A stretch of 64,000 nucleotides of DNA from Novakomyces olei. Lineage: Eukaryota. The position numbers were made by a program, and so were the translations under genes. The stretch is from NCBI GenBank assembly GCA_016906335.1, contig JADEYG010000007.1, positions 1,240,001 to 1,304,000 of the forward strand, given 5' to 3'. Position 1 is the stretch's first letter. Each line of letters begins with the position of its first letter. Below, piece after piece: positions 6,290 through 63,007 of this stretch. The notes below the pieces were generated by a model. It saw only the letters and a list, made by a program, of their open reading frames with translations. It was not told the origin of the DNA and ran no database searches.

Positions 6290-7904
6290 CTATAGTAGTT
6301 CAGCATAGACGTCGACTATAATATTTGCACAGGCAACCAGAATTTCTAAACAGTCAGCTTGTAATCTTCATTTGATTGCTTACCAGCCGCGATGAGTATA
6401 ATGACAATCCATTCCAAATACTCTCCGTGAGAGTGTTGCATCTATTCTGTTAGAAATGCCATCAGAATCTGAACCTACTTGCTCCTTTAGCATCGATAGT
6501 AGATCCCCGATTACTTCGACCCTCTGGTTCAAGAGGTCAACTCTTTGATCGATTTCCAAATAAGAGCTGAAAGGTTAGCAGGAGTGTAGATAATTATTTC
6601 GGAATATAGATACCGTGCAGCCCTATACGTAGGCTCCAGATGCGGCTCAGCCCACATGAGTTCAGGGCTATCGAGCACACTTCCTTGCAAATTGATGTTT
6701 ATACGGAGGATAAACAGCTCGCCGACACTCATCATAATCTCCTTGCGACTTAGCGACACTTTTCCCGTCTCTGCAATCATTTCAGGGATATCCTTTGTTG
6801 CCTCGATAGTGTTATCAACCAGTTCTTCAAAGAGTGAAATTTTTACTGATTGGGATATTGCGTGCGAAATAGACAATTTAACCATATAATTGCGGCCATC
6901 CTTGAGTGTTATAAAGTCGTTCCATATCTTTGATTAGCTTACTGCACAATTATAAACAAAACGGATAAAAGGCACTGTAGCAAGAGGAGAATTAAATGCA
7001 AAAAAAAAAAAAAAAAAAAAAAAAAAAGACGCCAAACAACATCAGTAAGGCTCGTGTATAAAAGCAAGCTGTGTGCACCCACCCTGGGCTGGTAAAGGCT
7101 GGTCACATAGTAATTAAACTCTTCAATCTCGATATCCTCAGGTGCTAGTTTTTCGACTTCGAACCGCGAAATATCCCTTAGAAACCTTTTCTCGTCGTCG
7201 CTCGTAAACCCCCAAAGAACCACAACGCCATAGTCAAACAAAAACACTTCGCTCAGCACCGGGGGTATATCATGGAGACCAGACATGTCGCCGTCATCAT
7301 TATCCCCGGCAGCCGGGGCCGCAGAACTCGTCCGCTGATTTAAGCCCAAAAGATCCGCAGTGTCTGCTCCTGACTTGGAAGACTGGCCATTTCCACCAGA
7401 GTAGGAAAATGGCGAATAAATACTATGGAGCATCGTACAGGTTAGAATAAAGCAGCTTAATACAAAACACAAGACTAACCATTCATCAATTTGTTTGGCC
7501 GACGTCTTGTTTACCGATTTGCGTGACTGGAAAAACTTGTGAACTGCCTCCATTCGAAAAGAATTGGCTATACAGTACGCAGTCACGCGAGGCAGTTTGT
7601 CTCTATGCGCTTTCCCGAGACGTTCAGCGTCTCGTCTCGCAGTTGTTCCCGTAATCTGTGATATTTGTGTATAAACGTCATCAATTTCGCTATCGCCTCT
7701 GTGATCCACAGACTCCTCCGGAAGCAGTTTTAGTTTTGATGCATTCTATTCTGTCAGCGCTGCTAGTCGGAAACAAGAGTCTACCTTTGAAGTTCGTTGG
7801 GGTCCGATTTTAGCAGCCGGAGCAGCTTGAGGTCGAGCTGTAAGAGGCAGCCGCAGCTCGTTCGTCTGCGGCTGTTTTGGCCTCGATGAGGCATTTGCCT
7901 GCAT
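6290..7904 (-). CDS. RMD1: Rmd1/Sif2-family (DUF155) protein, 7 exons
   Basis: LPRVTAYC, VFLFDYGVVVLWG, ISHAISQSVKISLFEELVD, LDSPELMW and HGEYLEWIVIILI. Six GT-AG introns with CTRAY branch points. Confidence 0.9.
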
Positions 7905-8038: not shown

Positions 8039-8053
8039 TTAGGGTTAGGGTTA
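8039..8053. promoter_or_regulatory. Telobox-like TTAGGGTTAGGGTTA in the RMD1/URA7 divergent promoter
   Basis: Exact TTAGGG dimer between two divergent genes. Confidence 0.55.
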
Positions 8054-8259: not shown

Positions 8260-10444
8260 ATGAAGTACGTCGTAGTTTCAGGAGGTATGATTCGACCGAT
8301 TGCTTTGGTTTCAAAGTCACTAATTAATCTTTAAGGTGTGATTTCCGGCATTGGAAAGGGCGTTATCGGTAAGCTGAAAATGTGTTGCATGTGAAGAACT
8401 TTTGCGTGGCAAATTGATCTGTGCGCTCTTACGGGCCCATACTAATTCTACCCAGCTTCTTCTACAGGACTGCTGTTAAAAACGTTGGGGTTAAAGATAA
8501 GTGAAAGCACTATATTCGCTGATGTGATTGCTGCTGACATCAGATTCACGTGTCCGCTATTAAAATTGATCCTTACATGAACATTGACGCGGGAACAATG
8601 AGCCCGTTAGAGCATGGTTAGTGTATTTTTACCAGTTCATTTCTGTTTTCAATTTCAGTATTTCTTACCTTACAGGCGAGGTCTATGTACTTGATGACGG
8701 GGGCGAAGTCGATCTTGATCTCGGCAATTATGAGCGTTATTTGAACGTCACGCTTACACGCGACAACAATATTACTACTGGAAAGATCTATAGCCGAATT
8801 ATTGAAAAGGAGGTAACACGTGCCCTGCTAAAGTTGTGAGCTAACATGTCAAAGCGCCGTGGAGACTACCTCGGGAAAACGGTGCAAGTTGTTCCTCACG
8901 TAACAAATGAAATTCAGGACTGGGTAGAACGGGTGGCCAAAGTCCCTGTCGACGACAGCGAAGAAGAGCCGGATGTCTGCATTGTCGAGGTATGATTATT
9001 GCGACTAACTTTCTTTTGCTTATTTATTTTGGCTTTTTTTTTTTTTTTTTTGTTATTCTGAGTTTACCATTTCTTCTGTAAACCTCTATTATGACATATC
9101 CTAACAGTTCAGCTCGGTGGTACGTGCGGAGACATTGAGTCTGCTGCCTTTGTAGAGGCAATGCGGCAATTCCAATTCCGAGTGGGTCACGAAAACTTTG
9201 CTTTAATCCATGTTTCTCTTTTACCCGTTATTGGCGGCGAGCAAAAAACCAAACCCACCCAGGCGGCTATTCGCGAACTCCGTGGTCTTGGTCTCAGCCC
9301 TGATCTGATCGCCTGTAGATGCAGTGAGCCGCTAAACCGTGGATCTATTGAGAAAATTGCAATGTTTTGCCATGTCGGCCATGACCAGGTGCTTGCGGTG
9401 CACGATGTTTCCTCTACATACCACGTTCCTCTTCTACTGGAAGAGCAAAAACTGAGAGAAACACTGACTAAACGCCTAAACTTAAACAGCATCTCGATCT
9501 CTGATCGTCAAAGGACTAAAGGTGCCTCCCTATGGCATAGTTGGTGTACCCTGGTAACCTCAACAGACCGGTTTTTCGAGAAAGTGACAATAGTTTTGGT
9601 GGGCAAGTATACAGACTTGAAGGACTCTTACATCTCCGTGATTAAAAGCCTGGAACACGCAGCCATGCACTGCAATCGCAAGCTGGAGTTAATCTGGGTT
9701 GAATCGACACATTTGGAACAGGACAACACGTCTTCCACAAACTATCACAAGGCCTGGCATCAAGTATGCTCGGCCGACGGAATCTTGGTGCCTGGAGGCT
9801 TTGGCAGCCGGGGCATTGAGGGAATGGTTTCCGCTGCTAAATACGCACGCGAGAATAATGTTCCTTACTTTGGTATCTGCCTCGGACTGCAGATTGCAGT
9901 GATTGAATTCGCACGTAGCGTCTGCGGTGTGAAAGGTGCTACGTCCACTGAGTTCCACGAGGCCGCTGAGCAGCCAGTGATTATGTATATGCCAGAGATT
10001 GAGAGGGAAAAGATGGGCGGCACAATGCGGCTTGGGCTTAGGCCGACAGTGTTTGTTGAGGGGTCGGAAAAGTGCAAAATTCGAAAGCTTTACGGTGGCG
10101 TCGGAACCGTTTTCGAAAGGCACCGCCACCGCTACGAAGTGAACCCTGACTACATTGACCAAATCCAGAATCACGGCCTCAAGTTTGTCGGTAAAGATGA
10201 GAATGGGGTTCGTATGGAGATAATCGAGCTTGAAAATCATCCTTATTTTGTCGGTACACAGTATCATCCAGAGTACCTGACCCGGCCGCTCACCCCCTCT
10301 GCTCCATTTTTAGGGTTTATTGCTGCCAGTGCAAATGTGCTGGACACTGTTATGGAAGAAGCACCAGAGCTGGCTAGAAGGCCGCGTGGGCTTAGTCATA
10401 ACTTGGAGTACCTCAACAAACGGTCAAGCCTGCTGGACGGTTAG
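8260..10444 (+). CDS. URA7: CTP synthase, 7 exons (intron 3 non-canonical)
   Basis: Spliced N-terminus [58 protein letters not shown], plus [18 protein letters not shown] and QYHPE glutaminase motifs. Confidence 0.97.
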
Positions 10445-48431: not shown

Positions 48432-49961
48432 ATGGTTAGTATAGGTTTTGTGGGTACTAACTATAGTCTATTTTAAAAGATAAAGGTGAATGAATAAATG
48501 AATAAATGAATAAATGAATAAATGAATAAATGAATAAATGAATAAATGAATAAATGAATAAATGAATAAATGAATAAATGAATAAATGAATAAATGAATA
48601 AATGAATAAATGAATAAATGAATAAATGAATAAATGAATAAATGAAAAATGAATTAATCGTCTTGAATGTTGATCCCCATTGATCCACGTTATGCAGCCG
48701 TTCAACAAGTACTATCCGCCCGACTACGACGGCAAACGTACGGCCAATCAGCTAGCCGGAACACACGCTTTAGGCCATCGTGCGAAAAAGATTAACCAAG
48801 GGTATGCTTGTACACTTGGGTCGCGTTAACATAAATGTAGCATTTTGACAGTACGCCACTTCCAATCACGTTTGCGTCTTTCATGAGCGGGATACTGGAT
48901 ATTGCTACCATTCCTGCCATTTGGTCTTTAGATTTTACCTTCTTTTATTCTCGTTATTTGCTTGTTCATCTTGGTATCTGTTGACTAAACGGTACCAGGT
49001 TCGGTTTGAACTGCCTTTTAATATCTGGTGTGGTGGATGCCAAAAGCATATCGGCCAGGGTAAGCTTTCGTTCGTATTACCCAATCTAAGACTTAAGGCG
49101 TTCGCTACAATGCGGAAAAGAAAAAAATTGGCATGTACTACAGCTCTCCAATATGGTGTTTTCGGTTCAAATGCCATTTATGTTCAAGCTGGATTGAAAT
49201 CCATACCGACCCAAAGGTATCTACTCTCCTCGGTACTGTTGCTCCGAGTCTGACATTTCAAATAGAACACACGGTATGTGGTGGCTTCTGGAGCGCGACA
49301 AAAAGTAGAAGACTGGGAGCCATCAGCGAATGATCAAGTCATTTCCCTTACTGATCCGGCCGAGCAAGAGCGCCTACGTCAAGACGCGTTTTACAAACTA
49401 GAGCAGGACGATATCAAAAGACGCGGACAGCAGTCTGCGTCAGGGCTTATAGACGATCTATATGAAAAATCACAACGGCAATGGGCCGACCCGTATACAA
49501 TGTCGCAAAAGTTGCGAAAGACTTTTCGCACGGAAAAGAAGGAGATTGCCGAAGAAAGATCGGCAGCGGAGGCGATAAGACAGAAAAACGGACTGGAGAT
49601 GGAGCTTGTTAAGGAGACTTCGCAGGATGCAGCACGATCGAAGCTGGTAGATTTTGATACTTTGGCAGATAAGAGAGCAAGGGCCCGCCTCCATAATGCC
49701 CGACATGGACCAGTCTTTGGAAAAGCGCGTGGAGACAAAAAGACACTGCAACGACCTTCTTCAAAGAGTCACGGATTCTTTCCGTCTTTTAACCAAAAAT
49801 CTTCTCCAATTGAACAAAAATTTGGCTCTTCGAATCGTGCTCCGGTTCGAACCATTAACGCCAGGCCGGAAGAGCTTGTTGCTGGCGATTCTACATCTGT
49901 TTCGGAGAAAAGGGCGCCATGTCTTGTCTCTAATTATGGATCAGAAGGCGAAGAAGGATGA
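48432..49961 (+). CDS. Splicing factor CCDC130/Yju2B/Saf4 (Cwc16 family), 6 exons
   Basis: [12 protein letters not shown]...[30 protein letters not shown]...[10 protein letters not shown]...[19 protein letters not shown]. Confidence 0.9.
48488..48644 (+). repeat. (GAATAAAT)n octamer repeat in intron 1 of the CCDC130-like gene
   Basis: About 19 units between the GTTAGT donor (48435) and the CAG acceptor (48697). Confidence 0.93.
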
Positions 49962-56066: not shown

Positions 56067-59000
56067 CTATAAGGTGAAAAGCTGCAGGGCAATAATAGCG
56101 CCATGAATATCAACCTCCTTTTGAGCAATATTTTGAGCTTCTGGCTTCAATTCAAGAGTGCTGACGACCCTGTCACGCAAAATCTTTTCCATGAGTACCG
56201 AGTTTTCCTCTACAGCCGATTCGAACCCGACAGGATCCTTGATGACCTTGAAATGCATGCCCACTTCATCCAATGGATCAAGTCCTGCCTCTTTTCTCAA
56301 GTACTGGACCTTGTTGATCAACTCACGGGTCAAACCTTCCTTCAATAAATCATCGTAGATGTGGGTATCGAGGAGAATAAAAACATCCTGATTGCTATTG
56401 ACAATAAACTTGTTGTCCTGGTCTTGCTGGCTGCCTTTAACCTCACGAATAACCTGCAGCTCAGTATCAACGAGAGGGATACCCTCAATTTCAATAAATT
56501 TCTCAAACTTGAACTTTTTAACGTCCTCTGTGGAAAGTTTACTCAACCCTTGCCTAACCTTAGCCAAGTCACCTCGTAAACGTCGACCTAGACTTTGCCA
56601 GTCCGGGATGAGTCGGTATGTCACCCCGTACCTATCCTCATCGTCCGTCAGAGTTAAATCACGGACATTGAGCTCCTCCTTAATATAGCTTTCCATTGAC
56701 TTGACATCCTCAAGGTACTGTGGACTATGATGCAGTACAATCAGCTCCTTTAATGGGGTCTTTAGACCGATTGCTTTGCTCTCACGAATGTACCGACCGA
56801 GTTCAATGACGGCCTGCATACGTGCTACTTTACGCTCAATATCTTCGTTGACATGGTCCATATTTACGTCCGGGAAGGCGACAAAGTGCACAGATCTCCG
56901 GTCTTCCGTACTATCTGCCTTGCTTGGCAGATAAGGCATAAGCAGTTGGTAAATTGTCTCCGCAATAAAGGGCGTAAAGGGAGCAATTGCCCTGTCCAAA
57001 GTGTACAGGGCATCAAACAGTGTATTTAGAGCCTCTAAAGTATCAGCAACCCCGTTCTCTCCCTTGAGGCGACGACGGTTAAAACGAATGTACCAGTTTG
57101 TCAGTTCCTCGATCAGCTTCAGGATTCTATTGATCACAGTAAACAACCGGTATTCCGCCATTTCACGCTTAATAAAGGCCACTAGGCTCGTACATGACGC
57201 TAGAATCCAGCGGTCCATCGGATTAGAACCAACTTTCATATTAGGGTCATAAACAAATTTGATCCCGTGTACTTTTTGCAAAAGAGCCGCCTGATTTGCG
57301 AAAAACTTGAAACTGTTATAAAAGGGCAGGAAGACACTGGTAATAATTTCGCGCAATCCTTCCTCCTTAAACCGTAAATTTTCTCCGCGCACAACGGGTG
57401 AACTGATCATGTATAGACGCAATGCGTCAGCACCATAAGTCTGCAATATGTACGAAGGATCAGGGTAGTTTTTCAGCCTTTTGGACATCTTTTTCCCATC
57501 TGCCGCCAAGACAAGTCCGTTCACAATAACATTTTTAAACGGAGCCTTGCCAAACAGGTGAGTTCCCAGGACCAGCAGAGTGTAAAACCAGCCGCGAGTC
57601 TGGTCCATTCCCTCGGCAATAAAATTGGCTGGAAAAGCATGCTTAAACTCTTGTTGAAACTCAAACGGATAATGATTAGAGGCATAAGGCATACTGCCAG
57701 ACTCGAACCAGCAGTCAAAAACTTCTTCAATACGTCTCAATTGTCCTTTGCCCTGGCGTGACGGGATAGTTATATTGTCAATACTATCACGATGAATGTC
57801 TGAAATGCCTTTTACTCCTGATAATTCTTCAAGTTCGGCGATAGAGCCAATACAAACAATTTCTTCCAGGTCTTCACTGGCCCAGAGCGGGATAGGAGTG
57901 CCCCAGTAACGGTTACGGGAAACGTTCCAGTCTCTAGCGTTAGCCACCCAATTGCCAAACCGACCATCTCTAATATTTTCTGGCATCCAGTGTGTTTCCT
58001 GTAAAGCCTCCACCATTTTGGGTGTGTAGTCCCGCACTTTAACAAACCAGGCCGGGATCATTCTGTAGATCAAAGGTGTATCTGATCTCCAACAAAACGG
58101 GTAACTGTGCTTCTCCTGAGACTGGACGATCAGCTTGCCCTTAGCTTTTAAAGCTTTTTGAATATCCTTGTCTGCATCTTTAACATACTCGCCCTCGAAC
58201 TGCGGCACTTCGGCGGTAAAGACTCCACGGTCGTCCAGCGGGTTTGGGGCATAGACTGTCTCGCTGATTATTCCATGTTCCATACACACATTGTAATCGT
58301 CCTCACCAAAGGCAGGGGCCTGGTGAACGATACCCGTACCACTATCGTCCGTTACATAAGTTCCTGTAACCACTTTAAAGGCACGATCCTTGAAAGCCTC
58401 GTAAAAGAAATCAAAAGGTGGTTCATAGCGCCAGCCCAGCATGTGAATGCCTTTAATGCCTTTTTCAAGGACAGTAAATTTCGCTTTTTTAGGGTTTTTG
58501 TACAGCACGCTGAGCCGTTTCTCCAACAGAATGTACTGACGACCAGATTCCTCGTCGCGTATCTTGATGTACTCAAACTCAGGATGAACACAGAGAGCAA
58601 GGTGAGAAGGCAGCGTCCAGGGAGTAGTTGTCCAGGCCAACAAAGAGGTAGCCGGGTCGTTAAGCAGCGGGAAAGCGACTACTACTGTCGGATCGACTAC
58701 CTCCTTGTAATTTTGCTGGGCTTCAAAGTTGCTAAGTGGTGTCGTACATCCTGTGGAGTAAGGCATTACTCGATAGCCACGGTAGACGAGCTCTCTTTCA
58801 AACAGTTGCTTAAAGACCCACCAAACACTCTCCATAAATGTAGGTTTAAGTGTCTTGTAATCGTTATCGAAATCAATCCAGCGACCCAGTCGTTCAATCG
58901 TGTGACGCCATTCTGATGCGTATCTCATCACAATTGCACGACATTCTGCGTTGTATTTGTCAATTCCCTAAAATTAGCATCGGATCAAAATCGGCGTACT

Positions 59001-59436
59001 CAAATTCAAACGACAAAGGCAACGGGAAAATGGAAACAAGACGGAAAAGAAAAGAGTAATAAAAAAGAATTAATAAAAATTTAAAAAAAAACTAAAAAGA
59101 AACGAACAAGAGTACCATCTTCATGACGTCCTCCTTGCAGGTGATTTTCAATTTTTGATCGATTTCGTGTTCCACAGGCAAACCATGCGTATCCCACCCA
59201 AAACGGCGTTCGACGTAGTGTCCGTTAGCCGCAGCATACCGGGTCACTGTGTCCTTTATGGAAGACGTCAAAATGTGACCGTGATGTGGGAGTCCCGTGG
59301 CGAACGGAGGTCCGTCGTAAAAGGTGTAGCGCGGCCGTCCACGACTCAGTTTCAATGAGGTCTGAAACGCATCGATATCGCGCCAAAATTGCAGCACTTT
59401 CTCCTCCTCTTGCACGATATTGAACGATGAAGACAT
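56067..59436 (-). CDS. ILS1: Cytoplasmic isoleucyl-tRNA synthetase (2 exons)
   Basis: [38 protein letters not shown] and KMSKR. Confidence 0.97.
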
Positions 59437-61358: not shown

Positions 61359-63007
61359 TTAATCTGAATTATCTAAAACCTTCTCCAAATCCTCCATTTC
61401 CTTGCGTCGCTTCCATTCCAAATAAGCCTCGTGCTTTTGTAAAGACCGTAACCGGCTACGGTGGTGCCGACTGGTAAGGTGCGTGTCCCACTGTGCTTGG
61501 CCAACAAGCGCCATTTTATTACCATGCTTGTCGAGGCATATATCACACTCAAAGCTTTGCCATAGATCAGTACGGCCACCAAAATCTTGCCATTGCTCTT
61601 TACTTGTGAGCAGTTTCTGTGCCTGAGGGGAAACCTCTATTGCAGCGGGCAGAGTATCGCCGGAAAAGTAAGCTTTTGCAAGTTCAATGGCTGGCTCCTT
61701 GACGTTGCTGTTCCAATGATCTATATCACTGGCATCCAAAACGTATAGGAATGAGGCGTTATCCTTATGACTACTCGCCTGGTGAACAACAGGGACTAAA
61801 CGGTTCCGCAGCCAGCGAACTTGCTGCCTTGCATATTGCCTTGTTGCTAGTCTCATGGTCTCAAGACAAGAAGAAAAGACGTCGCCATCGGAGCAGCCTC
61901 CTTCTAACCAAGGAAGAAACTCTTTAAACCCTATAGCCTGCCAGGCTCCTCTCTCTAGGTCAGGAGGAATACCACCCGCAGAGCTTTTTAAACGTTTAAA
62001 TATAGTGTACATGTCTCTAATTTCATCAACGAGACCAGCCCGGATCATGGCGTCCACCCTATTATCCAGTCGAGCTTCCAACACTGCGGGATCTGAATAA
62101 ACCCAAAAGATTAAAGTGGGATACCTGAATAAAGGCTCTGCCTGCCGCTGTTGTCTTTGCTCCATATAAACATCAGAAGCGCGCCGACCTGACTCAAGGT
62201 ATATCTGTAAGCTTCGACGAATTTTTCGACGATCATTCGGGTGCCATTTACTGGCGACTACTGGATCAACTTGCCGTAGATGCTCGAGAAGTTGGCTTGT
62301 AGGCCTCTCTAATAGTGACTCATCGTAATCTTTTGTCTCTCTTGACGAGCCAGCAATGAGCGAATTTTCAAATAAAAGGCTTTGTGTAAAGTAATGCGTG
62401 CCACCGGCCAACACGGGAACTCTGCCCGATTCATGCAAATGAGATATCTGAACAATTAATATGAAATTGAACAGTGTGCTATAATTAAGCACAAAGCAAA
62501 AGCTTTGTTGAAACAATGGCTTGAAGGACAAGGTTTGACCAAAACTAACAAAATTTGTTCGACCAAGTTATACGAAATGAACAAAAAAGATAAAAAAAAA
62601 AAAAAAAAAACAAAACAAAAAAATTTGATCAACGTACAATGTTGTCAGCATCTTTTTTGAAATCACCAACTACGTATTTATTACGCTGCGCCAAATTTTG
62701 AAACGACATCAAATGATGATAAACAGAACCCCTTTCTTCTTGTGAAACTTTGTTGGTTATAATATCAAGGCCCTTGTAGAATTGCATAGAGTCCCCATTG
62801 ATAACATCGCCATCAAACGCCTTGGCCAATTCAATAGCGAGCTTTTATTAGTACGTCTCGTTTTGAAAGAAATACCTGGGACTTTCCGACTCCTGTTGTG
62901 CCTTCATATTAGATATCTGAGAATTGAACCAAAAATTGAAGCAACGTGTGGATTTGCTTACCGACAACAGCAAAAACTGCGCGCCGTCGCATCAAGCAGG
63001 ATAGCAT
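61359..63007 (-). CDS. MOD5: tRNA dimethylallyltransferase (4 exons)
   Basis: Spliced VVGTTGVGKSQLAIELA, INGDSMQFYKGLDIITNK, GGTHY, QAIGFKEF, TRQYA and a C-terminal zinc finger. Confidence 0.95.

Follow-up and report, generated by a model that had tools for sequence, protein, structure and literature searches.

The CTP synthase gene of Novakomyces olei raises the question of how a conserved coding segment is joined when the sequence that interrupts it begins with AT and ends with AC. This gene, an orthologue of URA7/cts1, lies on the forward strand of the stretch of 64,000 nucleotides (nt) that we analyzed and refer to as the window (assembly GCA_016906335.1, contig JADEYG010000007.1, positions 1,240,001 to 1,304,000). 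A preliminary description of the window had proposed an AT-AC intron with U2-type signals at 8497-8549, which skips an upstream CAG. The spacing of conserved motifs within the protein and all nine related loci that we found back this proposal, and we consider it very probable that 8497-8549 is a genuine, constitutive U2-type (type II) AT-AC intron within the CTP synthase gene of an early-branching ascomycete. With this intron removed, seven joined exons encode an uninterrupted CTP synthase of 589 amino acids (aa), the top protein matches of which are fungal CTP synthases with 61-67% identity. The last exon matches the Pfam domains CTP_synth_N (PF06418) and GATase (PF00117, class-I glutamine amidotransferase), and the P-loop GxGKG and the motif KxDPY are separated by 20 residues, which together are the features by which we assigned the protein to the CTP synthases.

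The intron has the sequence ATAAGTGAAAGCACTATATTCGCTGATGTGATTGCTGCTGACATCAGATTCAC (53 nt). The exon upstream ends with TTG GGG TTA AAG (8485-8496), and coding resumes at 8550 with GTG TCC GCT ATT AAA ATT GAT CCT TAC. We enumerated all removals of at least 20 nt between 8458 and 8616 that stay in frame without a stop codon. Each GT-AG or GC-AG removal in this set either deletes the V-S-A-I-K-I-D-P-Y block or is at most 26 nt long and inserts residues. The block survives with no more than a small insertion in two cases: AT8497-AC8549, which inserts none, and AT8497-AG8543 (47 nt), which adds Ile-His. As the preliminary description had stated, read-through shifts the frame and then meets a stop, and the frame also shifts when either of two GT donors is joined to the AG at 8543 (GT8490-AG8543, 54 nt; GT8501-AG8543, 43 nt). 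We then compared the predicted proteins with the 120 best homologues of the window's last exon, of which 111 contain both GxGKG and KxDPY; the other nine lack one of the two motifs, their N-terminus being truncated or garbled. The spacing between the motifs is exactly 20 residues in 109 of the 111, and 13 and 16 residues in the remaining two. Removal of AT8497-AC8549 predicts a spacing of 20, whereas AT8497-AG8543 predicts 22, which is seen in none of the 111 homologues. AT8497-AC8549 is the sole removal that preserves the conserved protein segment at the fixed spacing of the family, and the earlier claim that it restores this segment without an indel is upheld by that spacing.

The preliminary description had also suggested examining the orthologous intron in relatives. 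We performed one scan of metagenome contigs for back-translated V-(S/T)-(S/A)-I-K-I-D-P-Y-M-N with an intron immediately upstream that ends in A plus C or G and has the donor (A or G)TAAGT 28-58 nt upstream, which corresponds to an intron length of 36-66 nt; G or A as the first base and G or C as the last base were equally allowed. Nine loci matched (L001-L009), all Pezizomycotina-like and one of them Cadophora. In all nine, AAG (AAA in L003) is followed by ATAAGT...AC and then by GT at the same codon as in the window, and none has GT-AG, which confirms the AT...AC intron in every relative found. The nine loci contain eight distinct intron sequences, as L001 equals L004 in this region and L005 differs from L006 by one intron base; the remaining loci diverge widely both inside the intron and at synonymous sites of the exons. 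CTGAC, which was outside the search pattern, is 12 nt from the 3' end in eight of the ten sequences (the window and seven loci) and 9 nt from it in L001 and L004. An AG between CTGAC and the terminal AC is bypassed in five of the ten sequences (at 6 nt in the window, 7 nt in L003 and 8 nt in L005, L006 and L007), and the bypassed AGs of the four relatives stand at positions other than that of the window, and are thus not conserved for use in splicing. The window and L001-L009 agree in the placement of introns 1 and 2, all of which are GT-AG; six and five donor hexamers, respectively, occur among the ten sequences. The position of intron 4 in the loci is offset by 5 nt from that in the window.

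These comparisons bear on two explanations that would make the AT-AC ends an accident of this one sequence. If a base-call or assembly error had replaced a true G at 8497, the interruption would be an ordinary GT-AG intron that ends at AG 8543 and adds Ile-His; its removal would be in frame (47 nt), and the CAG lies 6 nt past the presumed branch A, with other introns of the window possibly using this same distance. Such an error would nevertheless produce the 22-residue spacing that no homologue has, and A at +1 and C at the end occur in all nine loci, which come from independent assemblies. The error would have had to strike a base that is A in every relative, and we regard it as scarcely credible. 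A pseudogene with a mutated splice site, for which a second, intact copy elsewhere supplies the enzyme, is favored insofar as our search was confined to the window and the rest of the genome lies outside it. However, the frame of 589 codons is otherwise intact, the five other introns are canonical, and relatives share both of the odd terminal bases, which are thus conserved and not a private change; this leaves a pseudogene next to no probability.

Evidence from transcripts came from the Cadophora-like locus L001. Its last-exon protein is 100% identical to the CTP synthase of Cadophora malorum and to three further database proteins. Two proteins, P0122 (589 aa) and P0123 (614 aa), match L001 letter for letter in six blocks, the third of which runs to 6699 and the fourth from 6752; the AT-AC intron at 6700-6751 is therefore exactly removed. 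P0123 is an uninterrupted open reading frame of 614 codons that starts in the 5' leader of a 2112-nt contig, and in the genomic locus of L001 the same reading frame spans about 2210 nt with five introns. Because the contig is shorter than the genomic span of the reading frame that it contains, it must be spliced RNA. On this deduction about the nature of the contig, exact excision of the AT-AC intron is shown in transcripts of a relative, and it is the only direct sign of excision.

The Cadophora transcripts also bear on whether the A at +1 could be real and the main 3' splice site still be AG 8543, which would yield two extra residues or mixed products. This AT-AG removal is in frame, and its AG is the first after the branch motif. 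Against it, the transcripts use AC, the AT-AG product would break the spacing held in 109 of the 111 homologues, the intervening AGs in L003, L005, L006 and L007 are not positionally conserved, and A at +1 requires a terminal C for the second step of splicing (PMC1557818; PMC5029451; these and the other articles given by accession are cited for individual passages). We therefore judge AG 8543 highly unlikely to be the main 3' site. We also considered whether too short a distance from the branch accounts for the skipping of the CAG at 8543; this is unsupported, as two other candidate introns in the window, one of them doubtful, have a branch motif 6 nt before their AG.

An AT-AC intron at a conserved position could affect how the gene is annotated, and we assessed this among homologues of the last exon of L001 by using 51 named gene models of full-length type, all from Pezizomycotina and spanning Leotiomycetes, lichen-forming classes, Geoglossomycetes, Eurotiomycetes and others. 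The conserved junction is right in 14 of the 51 models and truncated or garbled in 37. The failed models start at MN(V/I)DAG, 42 residues short (n=10), start at MAPTEH (n=6), start with MH-VSSIK (n=3), skip exon 3 to read ...H-V(S/T)SIK (n=5), carry three or four residues inserted at the junction (n=3) or are otherwise garbled (n=10). The His that precedes V-S/T-S-I-K in at least eight of them is the final CAC of the intron read as a codon. In contrast, the homologues of the window's last exon, which come mostly from intron-poor yeasts, are correct at the same spacing in 109 of 111 cases. The failure pattern fits a non-canonical intron that would be widespread in Pezizomycotina, with models losing the ATP-binding N-terminus or becoming garbled because predictors disallow an AT-AC junction. 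The failed CTP synthase models would be repaired if predictors accepted AT-AC here with ATAAGT as the donor. The affected models include P0124, P0127, P0129, P0130, P0132, P0134, P0137, P0169, P0203 and P0225 along with 27 others. Separately, the model P0019 of Pachysolen, a member of Saccharomycotina, also begins at MNIDAG.

We also considered which spliceosome would remove the intron. The intron has AT at 8497-8498 and AC at 8548-8549, and its 5' splice site, ATAAGT, matches the U2-type consensus GTAAGT except at +1. The branch-site consensus of U12-type introns is TCCTTAAC. Across the entire intron, both the U12-type 5' site ATATCC and this branch site are absent; ATAAGT and CTGAC stand in place of [AG]TATCCTT and TCCTTAAC 10-15 nt from the 3' end. 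Removal by the minor (U12-type) spliceosome would agree with the AT-AC ends and with a branch motif 12 nt from the 3' end, a distance that would suit U12-type introns as well, and our search for RNA genes was confined to the window, outside which U11 and U12 small nuclear RNA genes may lie. Both internal signals are nevertheless of the other type, and the gene is that of an ascomycete. U12 splicing is reported to be absent from Ascomycota, Pezizomycotina included (PMC2846911), and the latter group nevertheless has this intron. We accordingly give removal by the minor spliceosome a very slim chance. ATAAGT is given as the consensus 5' site of U2-type AT-AC introns in an article that also gives the U12-type 5' motif (PMC5029451), and the match to it also follows from the approach of PMC1557818.

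For the AT-AC intron as a substrate of the major spliceosome, we propose the following mechanism. U1 and U6 would still be able to pair with positions +2 to +6 of ATAAGT despite the A at +1, and the branch would form at the A of an ordinary fungal CTGAC. During the second step, the A at the first base would pair in non-Watson-Crick fashion with the terminal C instead of G, and the CAG located 6 nt past the branch A would thereby be bypassed, with ligation occurring after the CAC at 12 nt. Retention of the AT-AC pair likely reflects a fitness valley, in which GT-AC and AT-AG intermediates would be poor substrates. Dependence on U2 rather than U12 small nuclear ribonucleoproteins (snRNPs) we infer because the gene is ascomycete and Ascomycota are reported to lack U12 splicing; the branch A is placed by its motif, and the reason for retention is similarly one that we infer. 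That the intron is a rate-limiting or regulatory step for CTP synthase, as the preliminary description had suggested for the former, is speculation.

U2-type AT-AC introns are an established, very rare class. Those of animals were reportedly described by Wu and Krainer in 1997, according to passages that cite their work. A survey of five model genomes counted 24 such introns among approximately 610,000 (Sheth et al., 2006; PMC1557818). Like the animal examples (SCN4A/SCN5A and TAF2), the CTP synthase intron combines AT-AC ends with an otherwise consensus U2-type ATAAGT, and it shares with them extreme rarity and very long retention in orthologues, as between human and fly TAF2 (PMC1557818). 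It differs in that it is found in fungi reported to lack a minor spliceosome, is short (51-56 nt), interrupts the gene of a housekeeping enzyme and has a strict CTGAC 9-12 nt from its end, with U2 snRNPs as its presumed requirement. An experimental precedent is an engineered yeast intron that begins with A and ends with C; Parker and Siliciano reportedly showed in 1993 that it is spliced with reduced efficiency, as described where their work is cited (PMC5029451; PMC6726248; PMC1557818). In that intron, an initial A prevents a terminal G from being used, and a terminal C restores splicing; the same pairing logic explains why an AG would be bypassed for an AC in the CTP synthase intron. The yeast intron is a laboratory mutant, whereas the CTP synthase intron is natural, conserved and apparently obligatory. 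Rescue of a first-base G-to-A change by a last-base G-to-C change in yeast is less efficient than GT-AG (PMC1557818), and in a mutated yeast intron only GT-AG surpasses AT-AC in efficiency, with no standard yeast intron normally using AT-AC according to the same passages (PMC6726248).

Other junctions of this kind have been described in fungi. The nested RPL30 intron and the SUT635 protointron of Saccharomyces cerevisiae resemble the CTP synthase intron in having AT-AC junctions in an ascomycete without a U12 spliceosome (PMC5029451; PMC6726248), but these events are minor or non-conserved (approximately 1-2% of RPL30 mRNA), whereas AT-AC is the only productive junction of CTP synthase and is conserved. 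U12-type AT-AC introns share the terminal dinucleotides and a short, fixed distance from branch to 3' end; the CTP synthase intron differs from them in having neither ATATCC nor TCCTTAAC and in a host lineage that is reported to lack U12 snRNPs. AT-AC introns have been hypothesized in xylanase genes of filamentous fungi (PMC1557818), make up approximately 0.03% of the SnowyOwl introns in one annotation study (PMC4084796), are among the non-canonical sites in RNA-seq of Fusarium graminearum (PMC3577648) and account for 69 of 14305 junctions in RNA-seq of Trichoderma longibrachiatum (PMC4324775), and AT-AC junctions are stated to be rarer in fungi than in animals and plants (PMC7072748). Within the passages that our literature search reached, which did not extend to supplementary gene lists, no report ties AT-AC introns to CTP synthase or to deep conservation in fungi, and none of the papers listed concerns a minor-spliceosome intron of this gene. 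The 14 correct database models show that some pipelines already annotate the CTP synthase junction; what appears to be new is the conservation of AT-AC across ascomycete lineages and the systematic failure of annotation.

How old the intron is depends on the placement of its host. Protein matches reach at most 67% identity for CTP synthase and 64% for Ile-tRNA synthetase, which indicates no close relative in the protein database; the best named matches with full coverage for Ile-tRNA synthetase are those of Taphrina, Saitoella and Pneumocystis (62-63%). We built two quick maximum-likelihood trees of CTP synthase with two Mucoromycota as the outgroup. Both place the window's protein inside Ascomycota, with support of 99 and 100 in the SH-like approximate likelihood ratio test (SH-aLRT), and outside a 100%-supported Pezizomycotina clade that includes Pyronema. 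Finer placement differs between the trees, as one has it as a weak sister of Schizosaccharomyces (81) and the other in a basal polytomy. The occurrence of the same AT-AC intron at the same codon in Pezizomycotina means that the intron is older than the lineage split and no recent mutation; by this comparison of sequences, it predates at least crown Pezizomycotina and possibly the ascomycete radiation. A more far-reaching suggestion is that it is a former U12-type intron of the ascomycete ancestor, a "living fossil" of several hundred million years that was converted upon loss of the minor spliceosome, and/or that it has been kept as a slow A-C step that tunes CTP synthase output. A U12-type ancestor would have taken on 5' and branch signals of the U2 type, with its AT-AC ends held fixed because single-step changes would be harmful. 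We put this forward as tentative and rather unlikely. If true, fungi amenable to genetics would offer a natural, conserved AT-AC intron that the major spliceosome is obliged to remove. Its apparent conservation between Pezizomycotina and a separate early ascomycete lineage would make it a marker for the persistence of rare intron classes, and it bears on a possible conversion of U12-type introns upon loss of the minor spliceosome.

Several points weigh against the AT-AC intron as we interpret it. Base 8497 is read from the assembly alone, and excision in N. olei itself is deduced from homology. In the metagenome scan, TAAGT (+2 to +6) and the intron length were fixed by the search pattern and are thus constant by construction, and the scan was blind to orthologous introns with other donor hexamers, GT-AG included. 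A branch-to-AG distance of 6 nt may be usable in this genome, since CTAAT precedes the AG by 6 nt in the intron of the Ile-tRNA synthetase gene, and AT-AG may be used for a minor product that adds Ile-His. The evidence covers the 64-kb window and not the rest of the genome, to which genes for U11, U12, U4atac and U6atac or a second copy of CTP synthase would belong. With regard to age, an approximately unbiased (AU) test does not reject the window's protein as sister to Pezizomycotina (p 0.105). Weighed together with these points, the U2-type AT-AC intron retains the strong preference stated at the outset. It would offer a natural test case in which an essential gene depends on the major spliceosome to remove an AT-AC intron, within hosts reported to lack the minor spliceosome, and would display the pairing rule between first and last base of the second splicing step at work in nature, as half of the sequences have a competing AG that is bypassed. 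Studies of it could draw on model Pezizomycotina.

The structure of the gene is given below. The five GT-AG introns range from 42 to 123 nt, and 8-12 nt separate their branch motifs (CTAAT, CTAAC or similar) from the 3' end.

Features of the CTP synthase locus of N. olei (positions are those of the window)
Feature	Position	Strand	Details
CTP synthase gene (URA7/cts1 orthologue)	8260..10444	+	7 exons, 6 introns, 589 codons plus stop
Exon 1	8260..8284	+	MKYVVVSG plus first base of G
Intron 1	8285..8335	+	GT-AG, GTATGA...CTAAT...AAG, 51 nt
Exon 2	8336..8368	+	from spliced translation
Intron 2	8369..8455	+	GT-AG, GTAAGC...CTAAT...CAG, 87 nt
Exon 3	8456..8496	+	from spliced translation
Intron 3 (AT-AC intron)	8497..8549	+	53 nt, phase 0
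5' splice site ATAAGT	8497..8502	+	U2-type consensus GTAAGT with A at +1
Branch-site motif CTGAC	8534..8538	+	presumed branch A 8537, from the motif; 12 nt before 3' end
Bypassed CAG	8541..8543	+	6 nt past presumed branch A; its use would insert Ile-His
3' terminal AC	8548..8549	+	intron end
Exon 4	8550..8616	+	ends with first base of G codon
Intron 4	8617..8675	+	GT-AG, GTTAGT...CAG, 59 nt
Exon 5	8676..8812	+	from spliced translation
Intron 5	8813..8854	+	GT-AG, GTAACA...CTAAC...AAG, 42 nt
Exon 6	8855..8989	+	from spliced translation
Intron 6	8990..9112	+	GT-AG, GTATGA...CTAAC...CAG, 123 nt, contains long T run
Last exon	9113..10444	+	includes stop (coding to 10441); end of synthetase domain and glutamine amidotransferase domain

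The T run within intron 6 consists of more than 20 consecutive T at 9030-9052. A telomere-like repeat, TTAGGGTTAGGGTTA, lies at 8039-8053 in the AT-rich promoter region, approximately 200 nt upstream of the start codon. A pyrimidine-rich tract is common to the 5' leaders of the Pezizomycotina CTP synthase loci, and after it come a short palindrome, e.g., CCCTCTGGCA..GCCAGCAAGGG or CCCGCAAGCGGG, and GCAC. This element lies 40-70 nt upstream of the ATG and was seen in L001 (approximately 6353-6382), L002, L003 and L005-L009; the window is without this element. In L001 this region is transcribed, as P0123 shows. Support from RNAalifold for a hairpin in the leader is weak (4 pairs, -0.83 kcal/mol).

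The preliminary description had further stated that every other intron in the window is GT-AG. This holds for the 15 candidates that we listed, five in CTP synthase and ten in other genes, and the statement has thus been checked in part only. The GT-AG candidates outside the CTP synthase gene are supported by open flanks and Pfam continuity, with the IPP-transferase candidate being doubtful, and CTGAC-type branch motifs recur in introns elsewhere in the window. When scanned automatically for introns, the window gave AT..AC candidates as often as GT..AG and control dinucleotide pairs, which makes these scans uninformative on other AT-AC introns. The intron of the Ile-tRNA synthetase gene (58968-59115, minus strand) has an unusual donor, GTACTC, and CTAAT 6 nt before the AG, and its junction fits the continuity of the Pfam profile (95 to 96) between two open reading frames. 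A gene for a splicing factor of the Saf4/Yju2 family (48849-49958, plus strand) has a GT-AG intron (49217-49265). Its two open reading frames leave Pfam profile positions 47-86 uncovered between them, and a further small exon may exist. For the candidate intron at 62842-62961 (minus strand), upstream of the IPP-transferase reading frame (61362-62567), the joined peptide is unlike the expected P-loop exon.

An Rfam search of the window returned only rRNA, 5S and one tRNA. A complete rDNA unit on the minus strand (24038-29690) comprises the small-subunit (27875-29690), 5.8S (27590-27743) and large-subunit (24038-27413) rRNA genes. It is flanked by protein-coding genes with no visible tandem array and may be single-copy, dispersed or a collapsed array. 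Beside it lie two 5S genes in opposite orientation (22046-22164 and 23472-23590) and a tRNA-Lys(UUU) gene (23204-23278).

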